From positions 32,001-96,000 of the forward strand of contig CAWEXO010000011.1 in assembly GCA_963813025.1 (NCBI GenBank): DNA of 64,000 bases, in the 5' to 3' direction. Origin of the DNA: an uncultured Verrucomicrobiae bacterium (GTDB taxonomy: Bacteria; Verrucomicrobiota; Verrucomicrobiia; Chthoniobacterales; JAFAMB01). The translations under genes were made by a program, and so were the position numbers. This document shows, in pieces, positions 24,075 to 54,677 of this stretch. The notes under the pieces were generated by a model. That model saw only the letters and a list, made by a program, of their open reading frames with translations, was not told the DNA's origin and did no database searches. Numbering within the stretch: the stretch's first letter is position 1; the number at the start of each line of letters is the position of its first letter.

Positions 24075-24260
24075 TTGTGGCGGCAGGGCGAAAAATTTGG
24101 AGAATGTCTCGTAACATCCGCTGACCCACGACCGGTAGGGCGAAAATTCACTCGAGCGCCAGCGAGAACTTGTTTGAGCCGTCTTGGAGGGGTGGCACAC
24201 CCCTTATGTCCGGCTCAAACGAGTCCTCGCTAAGGCTCGGATAAATTTTCGCCCTACCGG
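24075..24260. repeat. Family B composite repeat; intact 129-bp REPIN-like unit at 24132-24260 with CCGGTAGGGCGAAAATT termini
   Basis: Terminal IRs 24132-24148 and 24244-24260; the upstream ~55 bp is shared with 39884-39930. Confidence 0.88.
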
Positions 24261-39789: not shown

Positions 39790-40148
39790 TTCCAGGGCTT
39801 GTCGGACTTTGGAAATCTGCGGCAGCCACCCAAGCGATTGGTCGCCCGAGCGGTTAGAGATCGTCTCAGAATGCCGCACTGTCTTGTGGCTGTAGGGCGA
39901 AAATTTAGAGAATGTCTCGCAACATCCCGAAATCGGTAGGGCGAGAATTCATCTGAGCCTTCGGCGAAGACTCGTTCGAGCCGGGCGCTGCGGCAGGTCA
40001 CACTGAAGACGGCTCAAACAAGTTCTCGCTAAGGCTCGAATAAATTTTCGCCCTACCGGCGCAGGACCAAAGACGCTTTGGGACATGTCTCGAACCTTAG
40101 CTCGATTGCGCGAGCTACAGATTGGCCAAAGTCCGACAGACCCTGGAA
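39790..40148. repeat. Nested repeat: outer IR (39790-39812/40126-40148) enclosing a family B unit (39934-40058)
   Basis: ttccagggcttgtcggactttgg vs ccaaagtccgacagaccctggaa; inner cggtagggcgagaatt...aattttcgccctaccg. Confidence 0.82.
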
Positions 40149-42632: not shown

Positions 42633-44165
42633 TCACCACAAACTCCGATCAAGCGTCCGGTATTGTACCGCCTCGGAGAGGTGCTCGACATTGATCGATT
42701 CGCTATTGGCGAGGTCCGCAATCGTTCGCGCGACTTTGAGAATTCGATCGTAGGCGCGAGCGCTCAGGTTGAGCGAACTGACCGCCTGTCGCAAGAGGTC
42801 GAGACTAGCAGCGTCGACCGCACAATGCCGCCGGATGAGCCGAGGCGTCATCCGGCTGTTACAACTGATGCGCGGCTCGCGCGCCAATCGTTTTTGCTGG
42901 ATGCAGCGCGCTCGCGCAACGCGCGAACGAATGACTTCCGAATCTTCTTCCGGGTGCGCCGAGGTGAGTTCCTGGAAATCGATGTCGGGCACGTCGATAT
43001 GGATATCGATTCGGTCCAGCAATGGACCCGAGAGCCGGCTCCGATACTTCTGGACCTGTGTGGGCGCGCACCGGCACTCGCGACGGCTATCTCCGAAATG
43101 ACCGCACGGACAGGGATTCATCGCGGCAACAAGCATGAATTCGGCCGGGAAAGTCAGCGACCCGGCAGCGCGCGAGATCGTGACCCGCCCGTCTTCCAAA
43201 GGCTGGCGCATCACTTCGAGGGTCGATCGATGAAACTCGGGCAACTCATCCAGAAACAGGACGCCATGATGAGCCAGACTCACCTCGCCTGGGTTAGGAT
43301 GAGCCGAGCCTCCGAGCAGGCCCGCGTCCGAGATCGTGTGATGCGGGCTGCGAAAAGGTCGTTCGGTCACCAGACCCCTTCCGCTCTCAAGCAAACCGCA
43401 GATGCTGTGTACCTTGGTCGTCTCGATCGCTTCTTCCCGCGTCAGCGGAGGAAGGATGGAAGGAATACGCTTGGCGATCATTGACTTGCCGGAACCGGGC
43501 GGCCCGATCATGAGCAAATTATGAGCGCCCGCGGCCGCGATCTCGACCGCCCGCTTGACGTGCGGTTGACCGCGCACTTCCGCAAAATCGCACTCAGAAG
43601 GGCAGAGAGCGCCATTGACTTCCCGCGGCACCGCCGGTGTCAGCTCAACTTCACCACGCAGAAACTGGACGACCTCAGCCAGACAACTGGCCGGATAAAC
43701 GGTGACGCCGCGCACGATAGCCGCTTCCGCCGCGTTCTGGACGGGAACGACCATAGTTGGCCGGCCGCTGCGCCGCGCTTCGAGCGCCAAGGCCAGCACG
43801 CCTTTGATCGGTCGCAGTGCCCCCGAGAGCGCCAGCTCACCGGCGACAAAGAACGAATCGAGTGGCGGTAACCGGTTTTCCTCCTGAAGTTGCAGCATGG
43901 CCAGCGCGATCGGCAGATCGAAAATCGGACCTTCCTTGCGCAGATCAGCCGGTGCGAGATTAATGGTGAGGCGACGCCCGGAAGGCCAACGCAGACCGCT
44001 ATTACTGATAGCGGACGTGACGCGGTCGCGGCTCTCCTTGACTGCCGTATCGGGTAAACCCACAACGGCAATCCGATCGACATTCCCCCAGCCCGCATGG
44101 ACCTCAATTTCGACTTCGTGCGCATCGACGCCAACTACCGCCGCGGAATAAACCTTTGAGGCCAT
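42633..44165 (-). CDS. comM: YifB/ComM Mg-chelatase-like AAA ATPase
   Basis: [63 protein letters not shown]. Confidence 0.93.
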
Positions 44166-44310
44166 GAACAGCCTGGAGAATGAATGTTCATTACTTTTAT
44201 TGCAAATGTTTTATACATTGTATGTACGCGTTTTAACGTGACGTGGAGCAACATTCGGCAGACCTAGGGCCGGTAGGGCAGTATCTGAGCAGGTCTGGCA
44301 AGGGAAAAAG

Positions 44311-45585
44311 TTAAAGTTTTTCACCGATTGGTGAGTGGCGTTTTTTGAGGACTTGGAGGTAGCGCTCTTCGTCATAAGGGGTGCGGTCCTGCCAGAGCCG
44401 GAAGATGACGCGGATCCATTTAAAGGCCAAGGCGCGCACGGCAGTGTGGTGGGACTTACCGCGGGCCATTTGCTCTTGATAATAGAGCTTGGCCCATTGG
44501 GAATAAGGAATGGAATGAGCCGCGAATTCGTGGAAGCTCTGGCACAGGAATTTGGAGCGAAAGCGCCGCCGCTGGACGCTTTTGGTTTGCCCACTGCGCA
44601 CTTGGACCGGAGCGATTCCGCTTTTTTTCTGTACCTCCAGGGCTTCGGCAAAAGCCTGCCGATTGGAGCCAAAAGCCACCAACAAGCGCGGGGCTAATTG
44701 CGGGCCGGCTCCGGGCAGACTTTCAAAAATGTGCCGATCGGGATGTTTGGCAAACAGAGTGTGGATGGCTTTGTCAAAAGCCTTGATGGAATCTCGCAGC
44801 GGCAACAATTGACTGACCAAACACTTGCAACTCAGCACGGAGGGCTCCAGCAGAGAACGATCCTCGGTGACGGTTTGGGCCCGAGCGATCTTTTCCAGCC
44901 GCTCCTCAATCAAGCTTTGGCTCCGGCTGTGGTGTTGATAGAAAAAGGAGCGCAGGGTCTGGGACTTGGCTTTTTTTAAACTCTGCAGGGTCGGCCAGCG
45001 TTTCAAAAAATGTAGTGCCAGGGTCGTGTCCAGATCGTCGAGGACCTCCAGGGCCAGCGGATAGTAGACTTTGAGTAAGCTGGTGAGTTGGTTTTCGCAC
45101 ACCACGGAGGCCTCGACGGCTTTGCGTCGGTGCTGACCGAGCAAATCCAGTTCCCGCACTACCGGCTCCGGGGGTTGATAAAGCCGGAGCCGATCCCGAT
45201 GGTGATCAACGAGCTCTTCGATCAATTGGCTGTCGAGGGGGTCATCCTTGGCGCCACTGGTAAAGAAGACCTTGCGGTATTCGCTTAAACTCAAAGGATT
45301 GAGCGGATAGAGGTCGATCCAGTCTCCCTGGGTGCGAAGCATTTCAAAGAGTGCTCCCCGATTTTGTTCAAAACCAATGGCCACCCGCCCCTGCGGACCA
45401 GCCAAGCTTTTGAGCTCTTCGAGCCAGGTCCGAACCGAAACGGGATCGGCGCCCAGCTGGAATGTCCGGCATCCTCCCTCCGGACCAGAGCGTTGACAGA
45501 CAGCGTGTTCTTTATCAGCCCAATCGATTCCCACGCTGACCATATAATGGGGATCTGGGACCGGAAACGGATTTGATCGGTTCAT
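44311..45585 (-). CDS. IS110-family DEDD recombinase/transposase
   Basis: GIDW, FEQ, KDDPLD RuvC-like DEDD; LPGAGP, GIAPVQVRSG (catalytic Ser) C-domain; AGGAG RBS. Confidence 0.95.
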   Translation of the reverse strand: MNRSNPFPVPDPHYMVSVGIDWADKEHAVCQRSGPEGGCRTFQLGADPVSVRTWLEELKSLAGPQGRVAIGFEQNRGALFEMLRTQGDWIDLYPLNPLSLSEYRKVFFTSGAKDDPLDSQLIEELVDHHRDRLRLYQPPEPVVRELDLLGQHRRKAVEASVVCENQLTSLLKVYYPLALEVLDDLDTTLALHFLKRWPTLQSLKKAKSQTLRSFFYQHHSRSQSLIEERLEKIARAQTVTEDRSLLEPSVLSCKCLVSQLLPLRDSIKAFDKAIHTLFAKHPDRHIFESLPGAGPQLAPRLLVAFGSNRQAFAEALEVQKKSGIAPVQVRSGQTKSVQRRRFRSKFLCQSFHEFAAHSIPYSQWAKLYYQEQMARGKSHHTAVRALAFKWIRVIFRLWQDRTPYDEERYLQVLKKRHSPIGEKL

Positions 45586-45618
45586 GCTTGCTCCTTTTTT
45601 CTGGTTTTACCCAGCGCG

Positions 45619-45951
45619 AAAAAAGCCGCTTGGCTTTGGCCGTCCGAAATCCGTATAGTTAAGTCGTCGAAGTGTGAAGTGCTCGACCTCAACTAGAGTA
45701 TTCGTTGTGACGAATCAAAGCGCGACCGGCTGGCTCGAAACTCTGCCCTAAAGATCTCGCGGACCCGAAAATCCTATTCGTAGCCAGCCGGCGCGTCCTT
45801 CTTCGCGTGGGCAGCGCGGGATTTTGCCCGACTGCCCTTGGCAATGAAAACCCTTTCTTTTTTCCAAAGCTTTCTTTTCTCCGGGCGGAGTTATTCACAA
45901 GCTGGAGCTCCGACCGGTAGGGCCTCCGACCACAGCTTGCTGAATAACTCC
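45619..45951 (-). ncRNA. Predicted bridge RNA of IS110 copy 1
   Basis: Target-binding loop 45720-45795 with guides at 45766-45772 and 45745-45750; donor-binding loop with guides at 45697-45701 and 45653-45658; terminator-like hairpin 45619-45637; RNA ends inferred. Confidence 0.8.
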
Positions 45952-46408
45952 GGACTTGCTATACGGACTTGCTATACGAAAATTCATTCGAGCCTTGAAC
46001 TTGTTTGAGCCGGGGGTGCAAGTGGCAGCCTGGGTCGTTCCGTCACCGGATTCGCGCCCACGATAGCCCGGAAGCAAGGTACCAATATATGTCGCGAACC
46101 CGGTAAGGGCCGGCTTGAGCGACGCTGTGGCTCATTGGCCATTCCAAGGCGAGGTGACCCCATTTGCTGATTGGTGGTGACGACAAATTCACGGAGATAA
46201 TCTCGAAACCGCCGATCGCCGGATGCGAGCCTTAGCGAAAGCTTATTTGAGGCGTCCCAATTGTGGCGATTCCAATTTCAGATCCCCGAATTCGGTGCCG
46301 TACGACAAAGTTTCCAAGATTGGTCGACATCAATTCATCGGGCGAACGCTTCGCCAGATGATATAAAGTCCAAAACGCCGGGCAGCCTCGAACAGTGGAG
46401 TATCCGGC

Positions 46409-46975
46409 ATGCAAGCGTACGATCTACTTCATCCAGACCAGGCCACACCGTTCGAGGGGAGAGATGTTTTCGACCGGCGAGGCAAAAAGATCGGAGTTGT
46501 GGCGGCTCACTGGTTCAATCCGAGTACCGACCAAGTTGAGTTCCTCGGTGTTCGGCCAGGTCTACTGTTTGGCGGTTGCCATTTGGTTCCGGCACGGAGC
46601 GCATCAATCGATCCAGCCGACGACCGCGTCCACCTCGGCGTGGACGAAGAGATTGTCCTGAAGGCGCCGACTGCCATCCCGCACCAAGGTTTGGCTGAGG
46701 TTGAAAAAGAGGAAGTAAATGCCTATTACCACGAGTTTGTGCCCGTCGAGCGAGTGACTGATATCGCGGAAGTCCGTCCCGAAGAGGCGCTGAAGCCGCC
46801 ACCAGTGACAACCCCACCTCCGGGTAAGCTGGAAAACCAGTTTATTCCCAGCGAGCATACCGCCGTTGAAGAAGGGCTGCCGGCAGATGAGCTGACGGAG
46901 GAACGCCTCGAAAGCGGCCCGCAACCCGTGAAAGAACCGAACCCCAATGATCAACAGATTACCAAAAATTCTTAG
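46409..46975 (+). CDS. PRC-barrel domain protein
   Basis: G.DVFD..GKKIG.V motif, LVPA, AP, YY; GGAG RBS. Confidence 0.75.
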   Translation: MQAYDLLHPDQATPFEGRDVFDRRGKKIGVVAAHWFNPSTDQVEFLGVRPGLLFGGCHLVPARSASIDPADDRVHLGVDEEIVLKAPTAIPHQGLAEVEKEEVNAYYHEFVPVERVTDIAEVRPEEALKPPPVTTPPPGKLENQFIPSEHTAVEEGLPADELTEERLESGPQPVKEPNPNDQQITKNS

Positions 46976-47312
46976 CGTCCTGCTCCTCCTGTTCGGCACG
47001 GGCCTGGCGGTGGCTGCGTTCGAGTTGTCCATCCCAACCGTGATCGCGCAAACCACTCGGCATAGCCATCGAGCCACTCGGATCACCCAAAAACAAGCTG
47101 AACAAATCGCTCTCAGCAAAGTTCCCGGAGGCAAGATTCGAAGTTCCGAGCTGACCGGCGCCGGCCGGCAGCGCTTTTGGGCGGTGTTCGTGCTGAAACC
47201 GAACTCGAAAAACGCGAAGGAAATTCACGTTGACGCGCGATCCGGCCAAGTGCTGAAGTCGCAAACCGAAAAGCCGGAGGACCAGGCAGAAGAACCCGCG
47301 AAGACTCGCTAA
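46947..47312 (+). CDS. PepSY domain secreted protein
   Basis: Signal peptide; ITQKQAEQIALSKVPGG; EIHVDARSGQVL. Confidence 0.8.
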   Translation: MINRLPKILSVLLLLFGTGLAVAAFELSIPTVIAQTTRHSHRATRITQKQAEQIALSKVPGGKIRSSELTGAGRQRFWAVFVLKPNSKNAKEIHVDARSGQVLKSQTEKPEDQAEEPAKTR

Positions 47313-47356
47313 ACGGATAGCCAATAGCCGGATAGCCGATAGCCCCGGATTTGCTG

Positions 47357-48367
47357 ATGAGGTTTGTGGATTATGGATCCGGTGGCGGGCCGGACGCGAT
47401 GGTCCTGGCCGAAATGCCTGTACCTAAGCCGCAAGCAGGGCAGGTGTTAATCGAGGTGGCGTTCGCGGGGGTCAACCGACCGGACACTTTTCAGCGTGCC
47501 GGAAGCTATCCGCCGCCACCAGGAGCGTCGCCGATCCTTGGTCTGGAGGTATCCGGGAAGGTCGTGGACAAAGGTTCCCAGGTGACCTCATGGGACTTCG
47601 GGGACCAAGTCTGCGCACTGGTCGCTGGCGGCGGCTATGCGGAGTTTTGCGTCGCCGACGCCAGGCACTGCCTTCCGGTTCCTGCGGGCCTGAACTTAGC
47701 GGAGGCAGCGGCGCTTCCGGAAAACCTGTTTACGGTTTGGACCAACCTGGTTGATCGGGGCCGCTTGGCGCTGGAAGAAACGGTGCTGATTCATGGCGGC
47801 TCAAGCGGCATCGGATACCAGGCAATTCAATTGTCCAAAAACCGCGGAGCCAAGGTCTTCGCTACCGTGGGCACCCCGGAAAAAGCCAGGTTCTGCCGCG
47901 ACCTCGGCGCCGATTTACTGATCAATTACCAATCCGAAGACTTTGTGCAGGAAACCATGCGCGCGACGGATAACGAGGGCGTCGATATCGTGCTCGACAT
48001 GGTTGGTGGAGATTACATCCGGCGAAATATCCAGATCCTGAAGCTGGAAGGTCGGCTGGTGCAAATCGCGTTTCTCAAGGGCAGCATGGTCGCCGGCCTG
48101 GATTTCCGGCCAATCATGACTCGGCGCTTGACGATAACCGGGTCGACCCTTCGGCCGTTACCGGCGGAACGAAAGGCGGCCATCGCGTCCAATCTGCGGC
48201 AGCACGTCTGGCCGCTCCTGGAGCAAGGCAAGATCCGGGTTTGGATCGATCACGAATTTCCTCTGACACAGGTACAGGAAGCCCATCGTCTGATGGAGAG
48301 TGGCCAACACATGGGGAAAATCGTGCTCAGGGTGGGATGGGGTCAGTGCCAGTGCCAGTGTCGGTAG
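47357..48367 (+). CDS. NAD(P)H-quinone oxidoreductase (zeta-crystallin/PIG3 family)
   Basis: AGVNRPD, GGGYAE, HGGSSGIG, ITGSTLR, HMGKIVL. Confidence 0.92.
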   Translation: MRFVDYGSGGGPDAMVLAEMPVPKPQAGQVLIEVAFAGVNRPDTFQRAGSYPPPPGASPILGLEVSGKVVDKGSQVTSWDFGDQVCALVAGGGYAEFCVADARHCLPVPAGLNLAEAAALPENLFTVWTNLVDRGRLALEETVLIHGGSSGIGYQAIQLSKNRGAKVFATVGTPEKARFCRDLGADLLINYQSEDFVQETMRATDNEGVDIVLDMVGGDYIRRNIQILKLEGRLVQIAFLKGSMVAGLDFRPIMTRRLTITGSTLRPLPAERKAAIASNLRQHVWPLLEQGKIRVWIDHEFPLTQVQEAHRLMESGQHMGKIVLRVGWGQCQCQCR

Positions 48368-48495
48368 GGCGAGAATTTATTCGAGCCTTCGGCGAAGACT
48401 CCTTCGAGCCTGGCGCAGGAGTTGCCACCCGCTCCAGGCGGCTCCGCCTTCGCCAAGGCTATGGCGGACACGTTAAACGGGTTTTCGCCTACCGG
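48362..48495. repeat. Family B repeat copy
   Basis: cggtagggcgagaatttattcgagcc...ttttcgcctaccgg. Confidence 0.8.
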
Positions 48496-48882
48496 CGCAG
48501 GACCATGGCAGTGGCCCCTGATAATCGCTTGACAAGCCGATTTTTATGGTGCTTTGTAGGGGTTCTGCCAAATTTGTGGCGATTTGCGTCGATTTCTAGG
48601 AGAAATCTGCCAGTCTGGGGCGAACTAGCAGGGGGATGGGGATGGCAGAGTGCGTAACCCCCAGACCTGCTGCCGGCTAACAGTCCCGGGGTGCGGCAGC
48701 GGGAGTGCTGTTGCGGCGGCCGTGCACGGGGAAGGGTGGCGGAGGATATTTTAGAAAAATACGTTGAACGCTGCATTGAGCAACGGTGTCAAAGCACAGG
48801 TTGCTTAAGGTAGTTAACCTTTTTGGGTGGGAAACGACGGGATTTCCCAGAAAACAACTGGTCGGTCTACAACAATACACGT

Positions 48883-49737
48883 ATGGCAGGTGAAGATTCA
48901 GATACGGGCATCAAGATTTACCTTCGGGAAATCGGGCAGATTGCACTGCTGACTCCCCAAGAGGAGATTGAGCTGGCCGCACGAATCAAGAAGGGCGATC
49001 GCGAAGCGCGCGCTCTGATGATCAAGGCTAATCTCCGTTTGGTCGTTAAAATAGCCCACGACTACGCAAATTTGGGGTTGCCTCTGCTGGACCTTATCTC
49101 AGAGGGCAATATCGGCCTGATGAAGGCGGTCGAGCGGTTTGACCCGGCAAAAGGTGGTAAACTTAGCACCTACGCCGCCTGGTGGATTAAACAATCCATC
49201 AAACGAGCCTTGGCAAATCAAAGTAAAACGATTCGGCTCCCGGTGCATTTGGTCGATAAGATCTCGAAAATGCGGCGCGTGTCGTTGCAGATGAGCGAGG
49301 AACTCGGACGCGAACCGACCGATGAGGAGCTGGCCGAAGAAATCGGTATCTCCAGCGGAAAAGTTTCCCAGCTTAAGACGGTCTCGATCCGTCCAGCTTC
49401 CTTGGATGCACCGATCAGTGACGATGATTCGACTGAATTTGGTGAAATCGTCGGAGACGAAGAGGCCCAAACGCCTTTCGAACTCTTGCGAGACAAGAAT
49501 CTCCGCGACGAGGTCAGCGATTTGCTCGAAGTGCTCGACGACCGCGAACGGAAGATCATCTTCCAGCGGTTCGGGCTGGATGGCGGCAAGCCAAAGACCT
49601 TGGAGGAAGTAGGAAAAAAATTTGGCGTGACCCGGGAGAGAATCCGGCAGCTGCAAAATATTGCCTTGGCCAAATTGCGTCGGGCTCTTGGAAAAAAAGA
49701 GAGACCGATCGATGTTTTGCAAGAAGCAATGTCGTAA
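48883..49737 (+). CDS. RNA polymerase sigma70 factor, RpoD/RpoS-like (regions 1.2-4, no region 1.1)
   Basis: YLREIG..LLT.EE, NLRLVVKIA, GNIGLMKAVERFD, STYAAWWIKQ, TLEEVG..GVTRERIRQ. Confidence 0.93.
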   Translation: MAGEDSDTGIKIYLREIGQIALLTPQEEIELAARIKKGDREARALMIKANLRLVVKIAHDYANLGLPLLDLISEGNIGLMKAVERFDPAKGGKLSTYAAWWIKQSIKRALANQSKTIRLPVHLVDKISKMRRVSLQMSEELGREPTDEELAEEIGISSGKVSQLKTVSIRPASLDAPISDDDSTEFGEIVGDEEAQTPFELLRDKNLRDEVSDLLEVLDDRERKIIFQRFGLDGGKPKTLEEVGKKFGVTRERIRQLQNIALAKLRRALGKKERPIDVLQEAMS

Positions 49738-49767
49738 ACTGGTTGACTCCTTGTCGAGCGAGTTTCC

Positions 49768-49797
49768 AAAAGGGCCGTCCTGCTGGGCGGCCTTTTT
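49768..49797 (+). terminator. Intrinsic terminator
   Basis: aaaagggccgtcc-tgct-gggcggccttttt hairpin with T tract. Confidence 0.7.
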
Positions 49798-49841
49798 CTT
49801 GAGGAAAGGCAACGCCGAGTTATTCTTCCCTCCACACTTCT

Positions 49842-50576
49842 ATGAGAACTGGTAATCCGATTTTGACCGATTCGACCTTCGAAGCCGGCGGGCGCGCAAC
49901 CGAAACGATGACTTTAAGCGGGGTGATCAACCGCTCGTTGATTTTGCTGTTGCTCGTAGTTTTGTCCTCCATCGCGACTTGGAACGTGGCTGGCGCGCAC
50001 CCTTCGCTGGCCTATACCGCGTCGATCTTCGGCGCACTCGGGGGCCTGGTCGTGGGCGTGATTACGTCATTCAAGAAATCCTGGGCTGCAGTGACCTCCC
50101 CAGTCTACGCGGTGTTGCAAGGTTTCTTTATAGGCGCCATCTCCTGGTCGCTCGAGAGGCGGTTCCCTGGAATCGCGGTCCAATCGGTTTGCCTCACTTT
50201 TGCGGTGATGTTCGCTTTACTTGGTGCTTATCAGACCGGTTTGATTCGGCCGTCGCAAACCTTTCGTTCTATCATCGTTGGCGCGACGGGGGGAATTCTC
50301 GTGGTCTATTTGGTCAACATGGTTGCGGGTTTATTCTTTCACCGTCCCCTTTCTTTCATCACGGGAACGGGCCCGCTGGCTATCGGGTTTTCGGTCCTGG
50401 TGGTCGGCATTGCCGCGCTCAATCTCGTCCTCGATTTCGACTTTATTGCGACTGGCGTGGCGAATGGAGCGCCGAAAAGCCTCGAGTGGTTTGCCGCTTT
50501 CGGACTGACGGTTACGCTCGTTTGGCTCTACATCGAGATTTTGCGTTTGCTGGCCAAAATCCGCAGCAACGATTAG
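49842..50576 (+). CDS. Bax inhibitor-1/YccA family membrane protein
   Basis: MRTGNP, MT..G, seven TM segments, LVLDFDFI..G..GAPK..EW..AFGL.VTLVWLYIEILRLL. Confidence 0.85.
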   Translation: MRTGNPILTDSTFEAGGRATETMTLSGVINRSLILLLLVVLSSIATWNVAGAHPSLAYTASIFGALGGLVVGVITSFKKSWAAVTSPVYAVLQGFFIGAISWSLERRFPGIAVQSVCLTFAVMFALLGAYQTGLIRPSQTFRSIIVGATGGILVVYLVNMVAGLFFHRPLSFITGTGPLAIGFSVLVVGIAALNLVLDFDFIATGVANGAPKSLEWFAAFGLTVTLVWLYIEILRLLAKIRSND

Positions 50577-50876
50577 CGTGCATCGCTGATCGGGCCTAAG
50601 GGCTCTGTCGGACTCTGATCCTGTCCCGAAGGGGTCTGAGATGGTCTGTCGAGTCTTTTGGGGTGGAGTTATTCACTGCGCGAAGGGTAGGGCGATCCGC
50701 CTTGGCGGACGAGCGCCAGGCGCGAACTTGTTTGAGCCGTCCTGGGCGCGGCATATCCCAGGGCAGGGCTGGAACGAGTCTTCGCTGAAGGACTCAGATG
50801 AAGAGATTATGTCATAACGTGTCTCTGACCCTGTTGGGGTAGGGCAGTATCTGAGCAGGTCTGGCAAGGGAAAAAG

Positions 50877-52151
50877 TTAAAGTTTTTCACCGATTGGTGA
50901 GTGGCGTTTTTTGAGGACTTGGAGGTAGCGCTCTTCGTCATAAGGGGTGCGGTCCTGCCAGAGCCGGAAGATGACGCGGATCCATTTAAAGGCCAAGGCG
51001 CGCACGGCAGTGTGGTGGGACTTACCGCGGGCCATTTGCTCTTGATAATAGAGCTTGGCCCATTGGGAATAAGGAATGGAATGAGCCGCGAATTCGTGGA
51101 AGCTCTGGCACAGGAATTTGGAGCGAAAGCGCCGCCGCTGGACGCTTTTGGTTTGCCCACTGCGCACTTGGACCGGAGCGATTCCGCTTTTTTTCTGTAC
51201 CTCCAGGGCTTGGGCAAAAGCCTGCCGATTGGAGCCAAAAGCCACCAACAAGCGCGGGGCTAATTGCGGGCCGGCTCCGGGCAGACTTTCAAAAATGTGC
51301 CGATCGGGATGTTTGGCAAACAGAGTGTGGATGGCTTTGTCAAAAGCCTTGATGGAATCTCGCAGCGGCAACAATTGACTGACCAAACACTTGCAACTCA
51401 GCACGGAGGGCTCCAGCAGAGAACGATCCTCGGTGACGGTTTGGGCCCGAGCGATCTTTTCCAGCCGCTCCTCAATCAAGCTTTGGCTCCGGCTGTGGTG
51501 TTGATAGAAAAAGGAGCGCAGGGTCTGGGACTTGGCTTTTTTTAAACTCTGCAGGGTCGGCCAGCGTTTCAAAAAATGTAGTGCCAGGGTCGTGTCCAGA
51601 TCGTCGAGGACCTCCAGGGCCAGCGGATAGTAGACTTTGAGTAAGCTGGTGAGTTGGTTTTCGCACACCACGGAGGCCTCGACGGCTTTGCGTCGGTGCT
51701 GACCGAGCAAATCCAGTTCCCGCACTACCGGCTCCGGGGGTTGATAAAGCCGGAGCCGATCCCGATGGTGATCAACGAGCTCTTCGATCAATTGGCTGTC
51801 GAGGGGGTCATCCTTGGCGCCACTAGTAAAGAAGACCTTGCGGTATTCGCTTAAACTCAAAGGATTGAGCGGATAGAGGTCGATCCAGTCTCCCTGGGTG
51901 CGAAGCATTTCAAAGAGTGCTCCCCGATTTTGTTCAAAACCAATGGCCACCCGCCCCTGCGGACCAGCCAAGCTTTTGAGCTCTTCGAGCCAGGTCCGAA
52001 CCGAAACGGGATCGGCGCCCAGCTGGAATGTCCGGCATCCTCCCTCCGGACCAGAGCGTTGACAGACAGCGTGTTCTTTATCAGCCCAATCGATTCCCAC
52101 GCTGACCATATAATGGGGATCTGGGACCGGAAACGGATTTGATCGGTTCAT
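50877..52151 (-). CDS. IS110-family DEDD recombinase/transposase
   Basis: Same as copy 1 except E/Q at AFA[E/Q]ALE. Confidence 0.95.
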   Translation of the reverse strand: MNRSNPFPVPDPHYMVSVGIDWADKEHAVCQRSGPEGGCRTFQLGADPVSVRTWLEELKSLAGPQGRVAIGFEQNRGALFEMLRTQGDWIDLYPLNPLSLSEYRKVFFTSGAKDDPLDSQLIEELVDHHRDRLRLYQPPEPVVRELDLLGQHRRKAVEASVVCENQLTSLLKVYYPLALEVLDDLDTTLALHFLKRWPTLQSLKKAKSQTLRSFFYQHHSRSQSLIEERLEKIARAQTVTEDRSLLEPSVLSCKCLVSQLLPLRDSIKAFDKAIHTLFAKHPDRHIFESLPGAGPQLAPRLLVAFGSNRQAFAQALEVQKKSGIAPVQVRSGQTKSVQRRRFRSKFLCQSFHEFAAHSIPYSQWAKLYYQEQMARGKSHHTAVRALAFKWIRVIFRLWQDRTPYDEERYLQVLKKRHSPIGEKL

Positions 52152-52184
52152 GCTTGCTCCTTTTTTCTGGTTTTACCCAGCGCG

Positions 52185-52517
52185 AAAAAAGCCGCTTGGC
52201 TTTGGCCGTCCGAAATCCGTATAGTTAAGTCGTCGAAGTGTGAAGTGCTCGACCTCAACTAGAGTATTCGTTGTGACGAATCAAAGCGCGACCGGCTGGC
52301 TCGAAACTCTGCCCTAAAGATCTCGCGGACCCGAAAATCCTATTCGTAGCCAGCCGGCGCGTCCTTCTTCGCGTGGGCAGCGCGGGATTTTGCCCGACTG
52401 CCCTTGGCAATGAAAACCCTTTCTTTTTTCCAAAGCTTTCTTTTCTCCGGGCGGAGTTATTCACAAGCTGGAGCTCCGACCGGTAGGGCCTCCGACCACA
52501 GCTTGCTGAATAACTCC
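52185..52517 (-). ncRNA. Predicted bridge RNA of IS110 copy 2
   Basis: Target-binding loop 52286-52361, donor-binding loop 52206-52280, terminator-like hairpin 52185-52203; RNA ends inferred. Confidence 0.8.
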
Positions 52518-52631
52518 GGACTTGCTATACGAAAATTTAGCCGAGCTTCAGCGAGGACTCGTTTGAGCCGGACGCCGCGGTTGCCACCATCCAACCCGGC
52601 TCAAACAAGAAATCAAAGTCCGACACGTCCC

Positions 52632-53225
52632 TCAGGCCGGAGGAGCGGTGAAGGCTTTCTCTTTCCGCTCGCAACGTCCGCGTTCGCGGAGATCGATGCA
52701 GGAGGCCTCAATCCGGACGTTCAGTTTCACTGGGATAAAGCCAAAGCTGTTCGCGATAAATCGTTCGCGCAGGGTGACACATTGATCGTGCACCTGGACA
52801 ACTTGCCGGCAATCGGTGCAGATGATGTGGAAAGCGGCCGGCGATTGTTCGCGGTTCACTTCGTAATATCGATGCTCGCGGTTGAGCTCAATCTCACGGA
52901 TCAGCTGACTGTTCAAGAGCATCGGCAGCGTCCGATAAACCGTCGCCAGCGAAGTCAGCCGGTCAAGTTGCCGAGCTTTGGCCAAAAGGTCCTCGGCGTT
53001 AAAAGGCGCGTCGAAGGCAATGGCAGCGCGCACAATGACCTCGCGCGGTTTCGTCACTCGGAAACCGCTGGCCCGCAAGTACTCCAGCGCCTCGCAGAAG
53101 AGATCGTCGGGAAGCTTAGTCGTCTTCTGGTGGACTAATGCGCCGACATGTGCCGGGCGACGTTTCGCAGCAAAACTCCACGGAGAAATCTGATGTAGCG
53201 CACACTCGGTACGTTCAAATGCCAC
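52632..53225 (-). CDS. Fur family transcriptional regulator
   Basis: GFRVTKPR, SLATVYRTL, HIICTDC, distal C..C-like motif; start uncertain. Confidence 0.85.
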   Translation of the reverse strand: MAFERTECALHQISPWSFAAKRRPAHVGALVHQKTTKLPDDLFCEALEYLRASGFRVTKPREVIVRAAIAFDAPFNAEDLLAKARQLDRLTSLATVYRTLPMLLNSQLIREIELNREHRYYEVNREQSPAAFHIICTDCRQVVQVHDQCVTLRERFIANSFGFIPVKLNVRIEASCIDLRERGRCERKEKAFTAPPA

Positions 53226-53297
53226 GCGCGGCCTCCGGCAGTTCGGTTAACACCTAGCACGGTGAATCCAAATGGCGGGCGAGTCAATCGTCCCAAT

Positions 53298-54677
53298 TTA
53301 CTTCAGCTTGATATGGCGGCGGAGGAAGGTTGGCACGTCGAGATCCTGACCATCGATGATAGTTGGTTCACTCTTCTCAAAGCGCCCACGGGAGACGGGT
53401 TCAAACTGCAAAGTCTCCTGCTTTGGTTCGGGCTTTTTCGGAATGGGCGGTTTTGCTACTTCCGGTCGGGCGACAGCTTTCGGCGCGACTGCCCGTTCCG
53501 GTTCAGCGAGCGCAAGCACTCCTTCGATAGGCTTCGAAGGAGCGGGCGGAGCAGGTGCCTCGGTATTTGCCCGGATCTCGACCGCGGGAATCGAATTCAC
53601 CGAGGGCTCGGACCGGAGCGGTCCAAGCGCTGGACGATTCTCTTCGGCTGAACTTGGTTCGGGCAACGCCGCTCGAGCCGGTGGAAGCGGTTTTTCGGAG
53701 TCATCTCCCAGAGAACTTAAAATACTGACGGCCAGCCGTCCTCCCATGCGGGGATCCACGGCAATACCCATGAACAGATGGGTGGCATCGTTGATATGCC
53801 TGTTGAGCTCCTCCATGATGATTTGCACCTCTCCCAGGGTCACATTCGTGCCGCCGCGAATGTGGATAATGGCGTGAAAGGTGTTCTCGAGAAGCTCTCC
53901 GCGGTTCATGAGTGGATTCTTTAAGGCTTTCGCCAATGCCTCATGCGCCCGATTCTCGCCATCGGCGTCTCCGTAGCCAAAGAGCGCGCGCGCATCCCCA
54001 CGCCGGAGGACAGCGGCAACATCGTCGAAACCAATCTTGAGCAAACCAGGCCGCTGCAACAGGCCGGCGAGGGAACGAATGCTTTGGCTGATCGTAAGAT
54101 CGGCCGCGGCAAAGGCTTCATGCACACCCATTCGAGGCAAAGCGATTTCTGCCATTCGATCGTTTTCAAAGCAAACGACCGCATCGCACACCGAGCGCAG
54201 TTCGCGTAAGCCGGCCTCGGCTTGCGCGCAGCGCCGCCGGCCCTCAAATCCGAACGGCAAGGCCGCGAATGCCAGGACGAGCGCGTTTTCTTCACGGGCT
54301 AATCGCGCGACAAAGGGACCTGCACCTGAGCCAGTGCCGCCACCCAGGCCGATACAGAGGAAAATGGCCGTAGCGCCCCGCAGAACCGAGCGAATTTCGT
54401 CGCTGGCCTCATCCGCAGCGGCCAAGCCCATTTCGGGATCTCCTCCGGCCCCGAGTCCGCGCGTGAGGTTGCGCCCAAGTTGTACCTTTTGCGCGGCAAC
54501 CGACGCAGCCAAGGACTGTACATCGGTGTTAATCGCGACCATCTCCACCCCGTCGACACCGTCCAGCATCACCCGATCAAGCACGTTTGACCCTGCGCCG
54601 CCGATTCCGATGACTTTGATTGTCACTGAGCTATCCAGGCTGTCGCCCCGCTCGTACTGCCGATTTAGTTGCACCAT
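53298..54677 (-). CDS. ftsZ: Cell division protein FtsZ
   Basis: IKVIGIGGAG, NTD, GLGAGG, GLGGGTGSG, PF.FEG, C-terminal LDVPTFLR. Confidence 0.96.
   Translation of the reverse strand: MVQLNRQYERGDSLDSSVTIKVIGIGGAGSNVLDRVMLDGVDGVEMVAINTDVQSLAASVAAQKVQLGRNLTRGLGAGGDPEMGLAAADEASDEIRSVLRGATAIFLCIGLGGGTGSGAGPFVARLAREENALVLAFAALPFGFEGRRRCAQAEAGLRELRSVCDAVVCFENDRMAEIALPRMGVHEAFAAADLTISQSIRSLAGLLQRPGLLKIGFDDVAAVLRRGDARALFGYGDADGENRAHEALAKALKNPLMNRGELLENTFHAIIHIRGGTNVTLGEVQIIMEELNRHINDATHLFMGIAVDPRMGGRLAVSILSSLGDDSEKPLPPARAALPEPSSAEENRPALGPLRSEPSVNSIPAVEIRANTEAPAPPAPSKPIEGVLALAEPERAVAPKAVARPEVAKPPIPKKPEPKQETLQFEPVSRGRFEKSEPTIIDGQDLDVPTFLRRHIKLK

Follow-up and report, generated by a model that had tools for sequence, protein, structure and literature searches.

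The 64,000-nucleotide stretch of DNA analysed here (the window) hosts two copies of an IS110-group insertion sequence, in which the non-coding arm upstream of the transposase gene very probably encodes a bridge RNA of the IS621 type. The element is clearly a fresh example of the mechanism described in 2024, and not a new mechanism. Its anatomy and its target are defined by multiple genomic copies and by empty sites, the fold of the RNA is conserved among relatives, and three of the guides change together with the DNA that they would read. The left donor guide is the part of the RNA that fits the element poorly.

The insertion sequence and its genomic target

Copy 2 of the element, located at 50846..52530 on the minus strand, is 1685 bp long, one of the two flanking Gs being counted. 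The left end (LE) begins G/TATAGC, and the right end (RE) closes CAGATACT/G. These termini correspond to the points where identity to copy 1 stops, and the same ends are found in 10 genomic copies. Copy 1 (44280..45977, minus strand) is the same element, distinguished by two substitutions and by a 13-bp tandem duplication (GTATAGCAAGTCC) at the LE tip. The two copies are offset by 6566, and the identity along 44272-45965 is broken by just the two substitutions. The LE measures 379 nt (52152-52530) and hosts the RNA region, upstream of the gene; the RE is restricted to 31 nt (50846-50876). A genome-wide copy search identified 10 full copies and one left-end fragment. The transposase ORF is intact in all 10, and the element looks active. 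In the contigs of two runs over 50600-52800, breaks coincide with the IS ends, and joints are found only in the repeated flanks.

The left flank ends TTTTC in all 11 cases (10 full copies and the fragment), and the right flank is CCCTACC in 10 of 10 full copies. The base between ATACT and CCCTACC is G in nine copies and A in one. In copy 2 the left target arm AATTTTC is at 52531..52537, and the shared G followed by the right target arm CCCTACC is at 50838..50845, both on the minus strand and both recognised in copies and empty sites. Uninterrupted TTTTCGCCCTAC sites number 147 in the genome, versus about 0.5 expected by chance, and are nearly always located within one repeated extragenic element. 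The flanks of the copies and the 147 uninterrupted sites confirm both the target (AATTTTC-G-CCCTACC) and the junction of the ends (CAGATACT-G-TATAGC) proposed in a previous sequence-only reading of the region. The element inserts without a scar, one G being ambiguous.

The repeat hosting the target is about 60-80 nt long and fits the pattern …GGCTCAAAC(A/G)AGT(T/C)CTCGC…GCTCG(A/G)AT(A/G)AATTTTCGCCCTACCG…; it is present in about 150 copies in the genome, 10 of which are occupied. Two empty target sites are located inside the window, at 24246-24257 and 40045-40056.

Among the 10 full copies the LE varies at just three sites, all outside the 188-nt RNA core, which is invariant. The copies can be sorted into two variants (3 and 7 members), and their approximately 25 differences are clustered in about 170 nt of the gene (window 51450-51620), which looks like a recombined patch and not like even divergence. 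The 13-bp duplication at the left tip (GTATAGCAAGTCC twice) is found in three of the 11 copies (window 45965-45977, G000:C13 near 92669, and G000:C1 near 207986). It is seen in both element variants, and the TTTTC arm precedes the outer copy every time. The duplication could mark a transposing variant, or could result from re-insertion beside a 13-nt remnant recognised via the right arm only. The left-end fragment (G000:C1:207772-207986) is about 215 nt long, carries the 13-bp duplication, and ends inside the target-binding loop, directly past the left target guide. In another copy (G000:C16:83662-85354) the RE is one base short (CTGCTC-GATACT), within the stretch that the left donor guide should read.

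The transposase

The 424-aa protein encoded at 50877..52151 (minus strand) is an IS110-family DEDD/serine transposase, as indicated by Pfam and NCBIfam matches and by conserved residues. It matches PF01548 (N-terminal RuvC-like DEDD domain, E 1.8e-20), PF02371 (C-terminal Tnp domain, E 1.2e-8) and the NCBIfam model NF033542, denominated 'IS110 family RNA-guided transposase', with 148.9 bits for a cut-off of 140. Residues D21, E73, D115 and D118 are kept in 30-31 of 31 aligned relatives. S289, in the motif ESLPGAG, is serine in 27 of 31 sequences, and aligns to the ISCro4 and IS621 chains. A PDB sequence search returned distant matches only, confined to the C-terminal domain, to ISCro4 (9t56, 1.5e-6) and IS621 (8wt6, E 7e-6).

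Structure and conservation of the left-end RNA

The LE folds better than shuffled sequences, with z scores of -5.3 for the whole 379 nt and -3.3 for a 181-nt segment. A common fold has been derived for 13 left ends of close relatives, whose proteins are 64-72% identical: a 5' stem-loop, a small hairpin, and an outer helix enclosing two stem-loops. In the window element the 5' stem-loop (GGAGUUAUUCAGCAAGCUG...CAGCUUGUGAAUAACUCC) is at 52453..52517 (minus strand), as shown by folding and by a motif found at equal distance from the LE tip in relatives. The core of the RNA, i.e. the outer helix around the target-binding and the donor-binding stem-loops, is at 52185..52372 (minus strand), and is defined by a covariance model and by pair counts. 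In the outer helix GAAGAAG pairs with CUUCUUC or CUUUUUU, and both loops are closed by the same ACGAAU...UUCG motif across the family. The long stem of the target-binding loop is formed by a 5' strand (CGCCGGCUGGCU) that, with the closing ACGAAU, spans 52342..52359, and by a 3' strand (AGCCAGCCGG) at 52292..52301, both on the minus strand and both identified by pair counts.

A covariance model (R1) has been built from an alignment (A3) of the 188-nt core, and searched against 98 loci encoding relatives. The set is exclusive of the own-genome copies L001-L011, L106 and L119-L121, and of loci L018, L023, L025, L057, L109, L115, L116 and L118; some of these, for instance L018, L057, L109, L115 and L116, were dropped because the protein match was partial or cut off. 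In 91 of the 98 loci R1 has a match immediately 5' of the gene (88 full-length, 3 cut at the contig end); E values range from 3e-57 to 4e-4, and loci encoding proteins just 43-52% identical are included. No match was found in the remaining seven (L042, L096, L098, L110, L112, L113, L117). The model also matches both window copies, in agreement with the earlier claim that copy 1 (offset -6566) hosts the same structure. In an Rfam scan of 44000-53500 (E values up to 1) six matches emerged, all weak and unrelated, and none was to a bridge RNA family.

Pairing was measured in a non-redundant alignment of 50 rows (A5). Here 86.9% of cells are paired, versus 29-45% when partners are slid, and both sides are changed in 45 of 59 pairs, figures that are generous because the alignment was fitted to the model structure and its rows are kin and not independent samples. 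The observed values were reached by none of 500 shuffles of the same alignment. Helix 2, the stem of the target-binding loop, has both sides changed in 12 of 17 pairs and 91.7% of cells paired, and its compensatory changes are plain in the raw rows. The two weakest helices have 63% (helix 8) and 69% of cells paired; since they would pair guide segments with each other, they are read as loop and not as stem.

All six strings singled out in the sequence-only reading (the two strands of the stem at 52286-52361, ATTTTCG, TAGGGC, ATACT, and CTATAC at 52219-52224) lie on the minus strand where that reading had placed them. The second stem-loop, which had been drawn at 52206-52280, buries part of the guide region in a helix when the window sequence is folded singly, and this helix (helix 8) is not conserved in relatives.

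Target guides

The left target guide (LTG), AUUUUCG, is at 52332..52338 (minus strand), and reproduces over 7 nt, in the same sense, the left flank and the shared G. The right target guide (RTG), UAGGGC (52311-52316) followed by AG, is at 52309..52316 (minus strand). It reads as the right target arm in reverse complement, matching the target over 6 nt and the right junction over 8 nt. In close relatives LTG sequences follow the left flank: ATTTTCG is found with AATTTTCG in the window element, AGGTTTTCG with GAGGTTTTCG, and GGAGCCTC with GGAGCCTC. One-base misfits are seen in L038, L034 and L029, and a clear misfit in L035. The latter, a metagenome contig, combines the left tip and the flank AGAGCCTC of one subgroup with the guide AGGUUUUC of another, and looks like a chimeric assembly, if it is not an off-target or a recombinant copy. 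Both the right flank G-CCCTACC and the RNA segment UAGGGCAG are invariant in 16 of 17 close relatives; as to deviations of the right flank, L029 shows a single change within the arm (TCCTACC), and L057 is different.

In the wider family each flank arm has been scored against the proper half of the RNA, cognate pairs being compared with non-cognate pairs whose arms differ by 3 changes or more. The ends of the elements in relatives were placed by regular expressions on conserved end motifs, and metagenome contigs may be chimeric; rows L024, L028, L035 and L047 were dropped from guide scoring because right ends were wrong or missing. RTG matches of 7/7 are found in 26 of 51 cognate pairs versus 0 of 727 non-cognate pairs, and matches of at least 6/7 in 50 of 51 versus 33 of 727. 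For LTG, matches of at least 8/9 are found in 21 of 52 cognate versus 50 of 1379 non-cognate pairs. The largest LTG class (flank GAATAAATG, 11 RNA variants) reaches just 6-7 of 9, and in eight singletons (L020, L077, L093, L097, L102, L114, L037, L035) LTG does no better than non-cognate pairs in the ungapped test.

The matches of the window element have been evaluated also against chance, by 100,000 mononucleotide shuffles of 371 nt of LE. A left-target match of at least 7 nt occurs in 1.1% of shuffles, a right-target match of at least 6 in 11%, and a right-donor match of at least 6 in 6.2%. The left-target, right-target and right-donor matches occur jointly in 7 of 100,000 shuffles, and in the observed order in 1 of 100,000. 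This joint figure bears on a different view of the LE, i.e. that it is only a structured leader, through which the translation or the stability of the transposase mRNA is controlled, and that the likeness to the junctions is coincidental. The R1 structure does end about 35 nt before the transposase start codon, a location that would suit a leader. The loop segments, however, change with the flanks over many classes while stems stay paired, and a coincidence of such low frequency would have to be accepted for the window element; a leader function with fortuitous matches is highly improbable. Taking the LE as a bridge RNA, the LTG and RTG assignments, and that of the right donor guide discussed below, are supported by sequence comparison.

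Donor guides

The right donor guide (RDG), CUAUAC followed by GG, is at 52217..52224 (minus strand), and matches the left tip of the element in reverse complement over 6-7 nt. RDG sequences change along with the left tip, and four classes have been recognised: CUAUAC with GTATAG, CUGUAC with GTACAG, CUAUAA with TTATAG, and CAAUAA with TTATTG. Matches of at least 7/8 are found in 40 of 48 cognate versus 3 of 279 non-cognate pairs.

The left donor guide (LDG) is best defined in relatives. In these, the RE closes CTCAGAxG; the second loop has, on its 5' strand, CUC(N)AGAxG immediately following ACGAAU(A/U/C). The base x, beside the crossover, matches the RE for all four nucleotides; a hand count of 22 distinct rows gave 19 exact matches, 2 U-G pairs and 1 mismatch. 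In L102 the RE has CAGATC and the RNA CAGAUC. Ungapped LDG matches of at least 8/9 are found in 7 of 48 cognate versus 0 of 186 non-cognate pairs. The RE of the window subfamily and of L037 is 3 nt longer (…CAGATACT-G) than that of other relatives. The homologous site in the window element (CUCUAGUUGAGG, 52253..52264, minus strand) matches in part the RE sequence CTC-AGATACTG. The fit of CUC-U-AGUUGAGG to CTC-AGATACTG is poor, and past CTC and AG it amounts to 2 Watson-Crick pairs and 1 wobble in 6 positions. The commonest close relatives fit better, as GGUUGAUG compared to AGTTACTG gives 7/8, counting two wobbles.

In L017, in L094 and in the group at 50% identity, the RE resembles the 5' strand of the donor loop over about 13-17 nt, past the guide (ACGGATTACCTCAGAGGT compared to ACGAAUUCUCAGAGGU). 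This extended likeness suggests either a longer pairing or a common origin of both segments.

The sequence-only reading had assigned the LDG to ATACT, i.e. to AUACU at 52263..52267 (minus strand), an assignment that is unsupported. AUACU is part of the conserved sequence ACGAAUACUC, which is kept in relatives whose RE has no ATACT, and since a match of at least 5 is obtained by 22.6% of shuffles, the similarity is no better than chance. It may be argued that the bridge RNA is right and that AUACU, within ACGAAUACUC, became the working LDG of the subfamily after the RE had been lengthened by 3 nt. The five contiguous bases match the last five of the RE, the RE is longer in the window subfamily and in L037 than in other relatives, and the fit of the homologous segment to the window element is bad. 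Yet close relatives with GTTACT or GCTACT ends keep AAUACU, so that covariation is missing; the first A of AUACU belongs to the conserved CGAA/UUCG closing helix, and the base after AUACU is C, mismatched to the shared G. A subfamily-specific guide of this kind is thus unlikely. AUACU is the less likely of the two sites, standing at a low probability, and CUCUAGUUGAGG is a candidate that fits the element only in part. The guide order and polarity of IS621, claimed for the element at the outset, hold for LTG, RTG and RDG, on the evidence of covariation between loops and flanks, and are unsupported for ATACT as LDG. Extending the comparison to relatives has likewise borne out the fold (91 of 98 loci, 45 of 59 pairs) and the same three guides, ATACT being left aside.

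Segments similar to the element ends might alternatively work as DNA, i.e. as subterminal repeats of the ends bound by a protein, and not as RNA guides. RDG is indeed an inverted copy of the left tip, and the likeness of the LDG region to the RE extends in relatives to as much as about 17 nt. Repeats of this sort leave unexplained the matches to the target flanks, which lie outside the element, and the segments are located in loops of a fold kept by compensatory changes. The notion that they serve as DNA sites deserves very little credence, and the matching segments are regarded here as guides of a bridge RNA.

Crossover and handshake bases

The target TTTTC-G-CCCTAC and the donor ATACT-G-TATAG have just G in common, and no identical dinucleotide core. 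The bases beside the shared G are on the left C in the target versus T in the donor, and on the right C in the target versus T in the donor. IS621 recombines at an identical CT dinucleotide, which is read by all four guides, and the top strand is cut after CT (PMC11208158). A CT core of the IS621 type is ruled out in the window element, as the left junction has no CT. LTG, RTG and RDG cover the shared G, and neither LDG candidate does so cleanly.

In all 10 insertions the left junction is G-T and the right junction is G-C, with the exception of one copy (G000:C4:2772-4465) in which the right junction is ATACT-A-CCCTACC, the left junction still having G. This copy is 1.6% diverged, and A replaces G in 3 of 155 sites (empty sites TTTTCACCCTAC); on account of these two figures, a mutation and a variant target are about equally likely sources of the A. 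In relatives, donor and target have in common GT, just T, or, in two singletons, no base at all. Left of the crossover the base changes along with the target, while its counterpart in the right junction is constant.

According to the handshake rule described for IS621, bases located 3' of RTG and RDG are complementary to the left arm of the other partner (PMC11208158). In the window element RTG covers the target G-C; the AG that comes next is complementary to the donor CT (the last CT of the RE) and not to the target TC. RDG covers the donor G-T and is followed by GG, which pairs with the target TC with one wobble, and equally with the donor CT; the first of these Gs complements the C that closes the left flank. 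In relatives, one to three bases after RDG match the left arm of the target, as the rule predicts.

The junction pattern would be explained by a fixed exchange point, mid-way in the would-be IS621 core, and also by a tolerated core mismatch with biased fixation. Tentatively, and with low expectation that it is so, it may be proposed that in this clade donor and target need at most one common crossover base, the fixed junctions keeping the left base with the left DNA and the right base with the right DNA. The pattern would fit an exchange occurring one position earlier than in IS621, or the fixation of just one transferred strand. Two preprints, one of which deals with CazIS110-1 (bioRxiv 10.1101/2025.10.25.684509), argue that IS110 elements transfer a single strand. 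If true, the proposal would imply a natural bridge system with no requirement for a dinucleotide core.

Proposed mechanism and candidate promoter

The 379-nt LE would encode a bridge RNA made of a 5' stem-loop, a spacer hairpin and the 188-nt core. In the core, the outer helix would enclose two stem-loops, each closed by ACGAAU...UUCG and each featuring an internal loop, the first reading the insertion site, and the second reading the joined ends of the element itself. Transposase and bridge RNA would then recombine a circular copy with TTTTCG^CCCTAC, inside the repeat present about 150 times, leaving no duplication. That the RNA is made and bound by the transposase, and that changes in the loops would redirect specificity, which would make the system 'RNA-programmable', is presumed by homology to IS621.

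The sequencing runs listed as containing the sequence include no RNA run, and no promoter was found in a scan for sigma-70-like sequences of the coding strand of the linear LE. In IS621 a junction promoter has been described across RE-LE of the circle (PMC11208160, PMC11208158). The RE of the window element contains TTGCCA, read from the sequence at 50862..50867 (minus strand). Circle formation would place this hexamer 17 nt before TATAGC, and a junction promoter is thus possible; the second hexamer of the candidate is weak, as it has no final T. A TTG hexamer is located 14-18 nt before the LE in all 46 distinct right ends, mostly at a spacing of 14 nt.

Comparison with known systems

The window element shares with IS621, as described by Durrant et al. 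2024 (PMC11208160) and Hiraizumi et al. 2024 (PMC11208158), a DEDD plus serine recombinase, and a long LE featuring a 5' stem-loop, a target-binding loop and then a donor-binding loop. In both, 5' strands of the loops are in the sense of the left arms, and 3' strands are the reverse complement of the right arms. Handshake bases, scarless insertion into a repeated extragenic element and a -35-like hexamer in the RE are also common features. Unlike IS621, the window element encodes a 424-aa protein with detectable similarity to the IS621 transposase in the C-terminal domain only, and has one shared G in place of the identical CT core and a poorly matched LDG. The LE of 379 nt includes an additional hairpin and has both loops enclosed in an outer helix, whereas IS621 is reported to have a LE of 191 bp and an RNA of 177 nt.

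ISPpu10 and ISPpu9 of Pseudomonas (bioRxiv 10.64898/2026.03.19.712850, PMC12288879) are similarly multi-copy IS110 elements inserted in one intergenic repeat. ISPpu10 reportedly needs a GC-rich stem-loop located 5' of the target (bioRxiv 10.64898/2026.03.19.712850), unlike the window element, for which the folding of three target contexts in search of such a structure gave inconsistent results (z -2.3 to +1.0). The seekRNA described for IS1111/IS110 elements (Siddiquee et al. 2024, PMC11187229) conveys the same idea, the choice of the target being left to a non-coding RNA of the element. In the IS1111 group the RNA is located in the RE, downstream of the gene (PMC11208160), whereas in the window element it is upstream, as in the IS110 group. 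CazIS110-1 is likewise an IS110 element with a bridge RNA, for which copy-out and mainly top-strand insertion have been reported (bioRxiv 10.1101/2025.10.25.684509), a subject to which the fixed junctions of the window element are relevant.

Bridge RNAs were predicted in 2024 for 85.7% of IS110-group elements (PMC11208160). A literature search retrieved no report of an IS110 element with a bridge RNA under the term Verrucomicrobi, and the orthologue tables of PMC11208160 may already list the clade. Relatives to which a name could be given come from Verrucomicrobiota and Acidobacteriota MAGs.

Current annotation would already name the protein of the element an IS110 RNA-guided transposase. The element represents a natural bridge-RNA system from a soil lineage, far in sequence from the E. 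coli model. As its own genome features 10 filled and 147 empty sites, it is a convenient orthologue for testing guide rules, and the single shared crossover base, together with the poorly matched LDG, could teach how strict the core and donor rules are.
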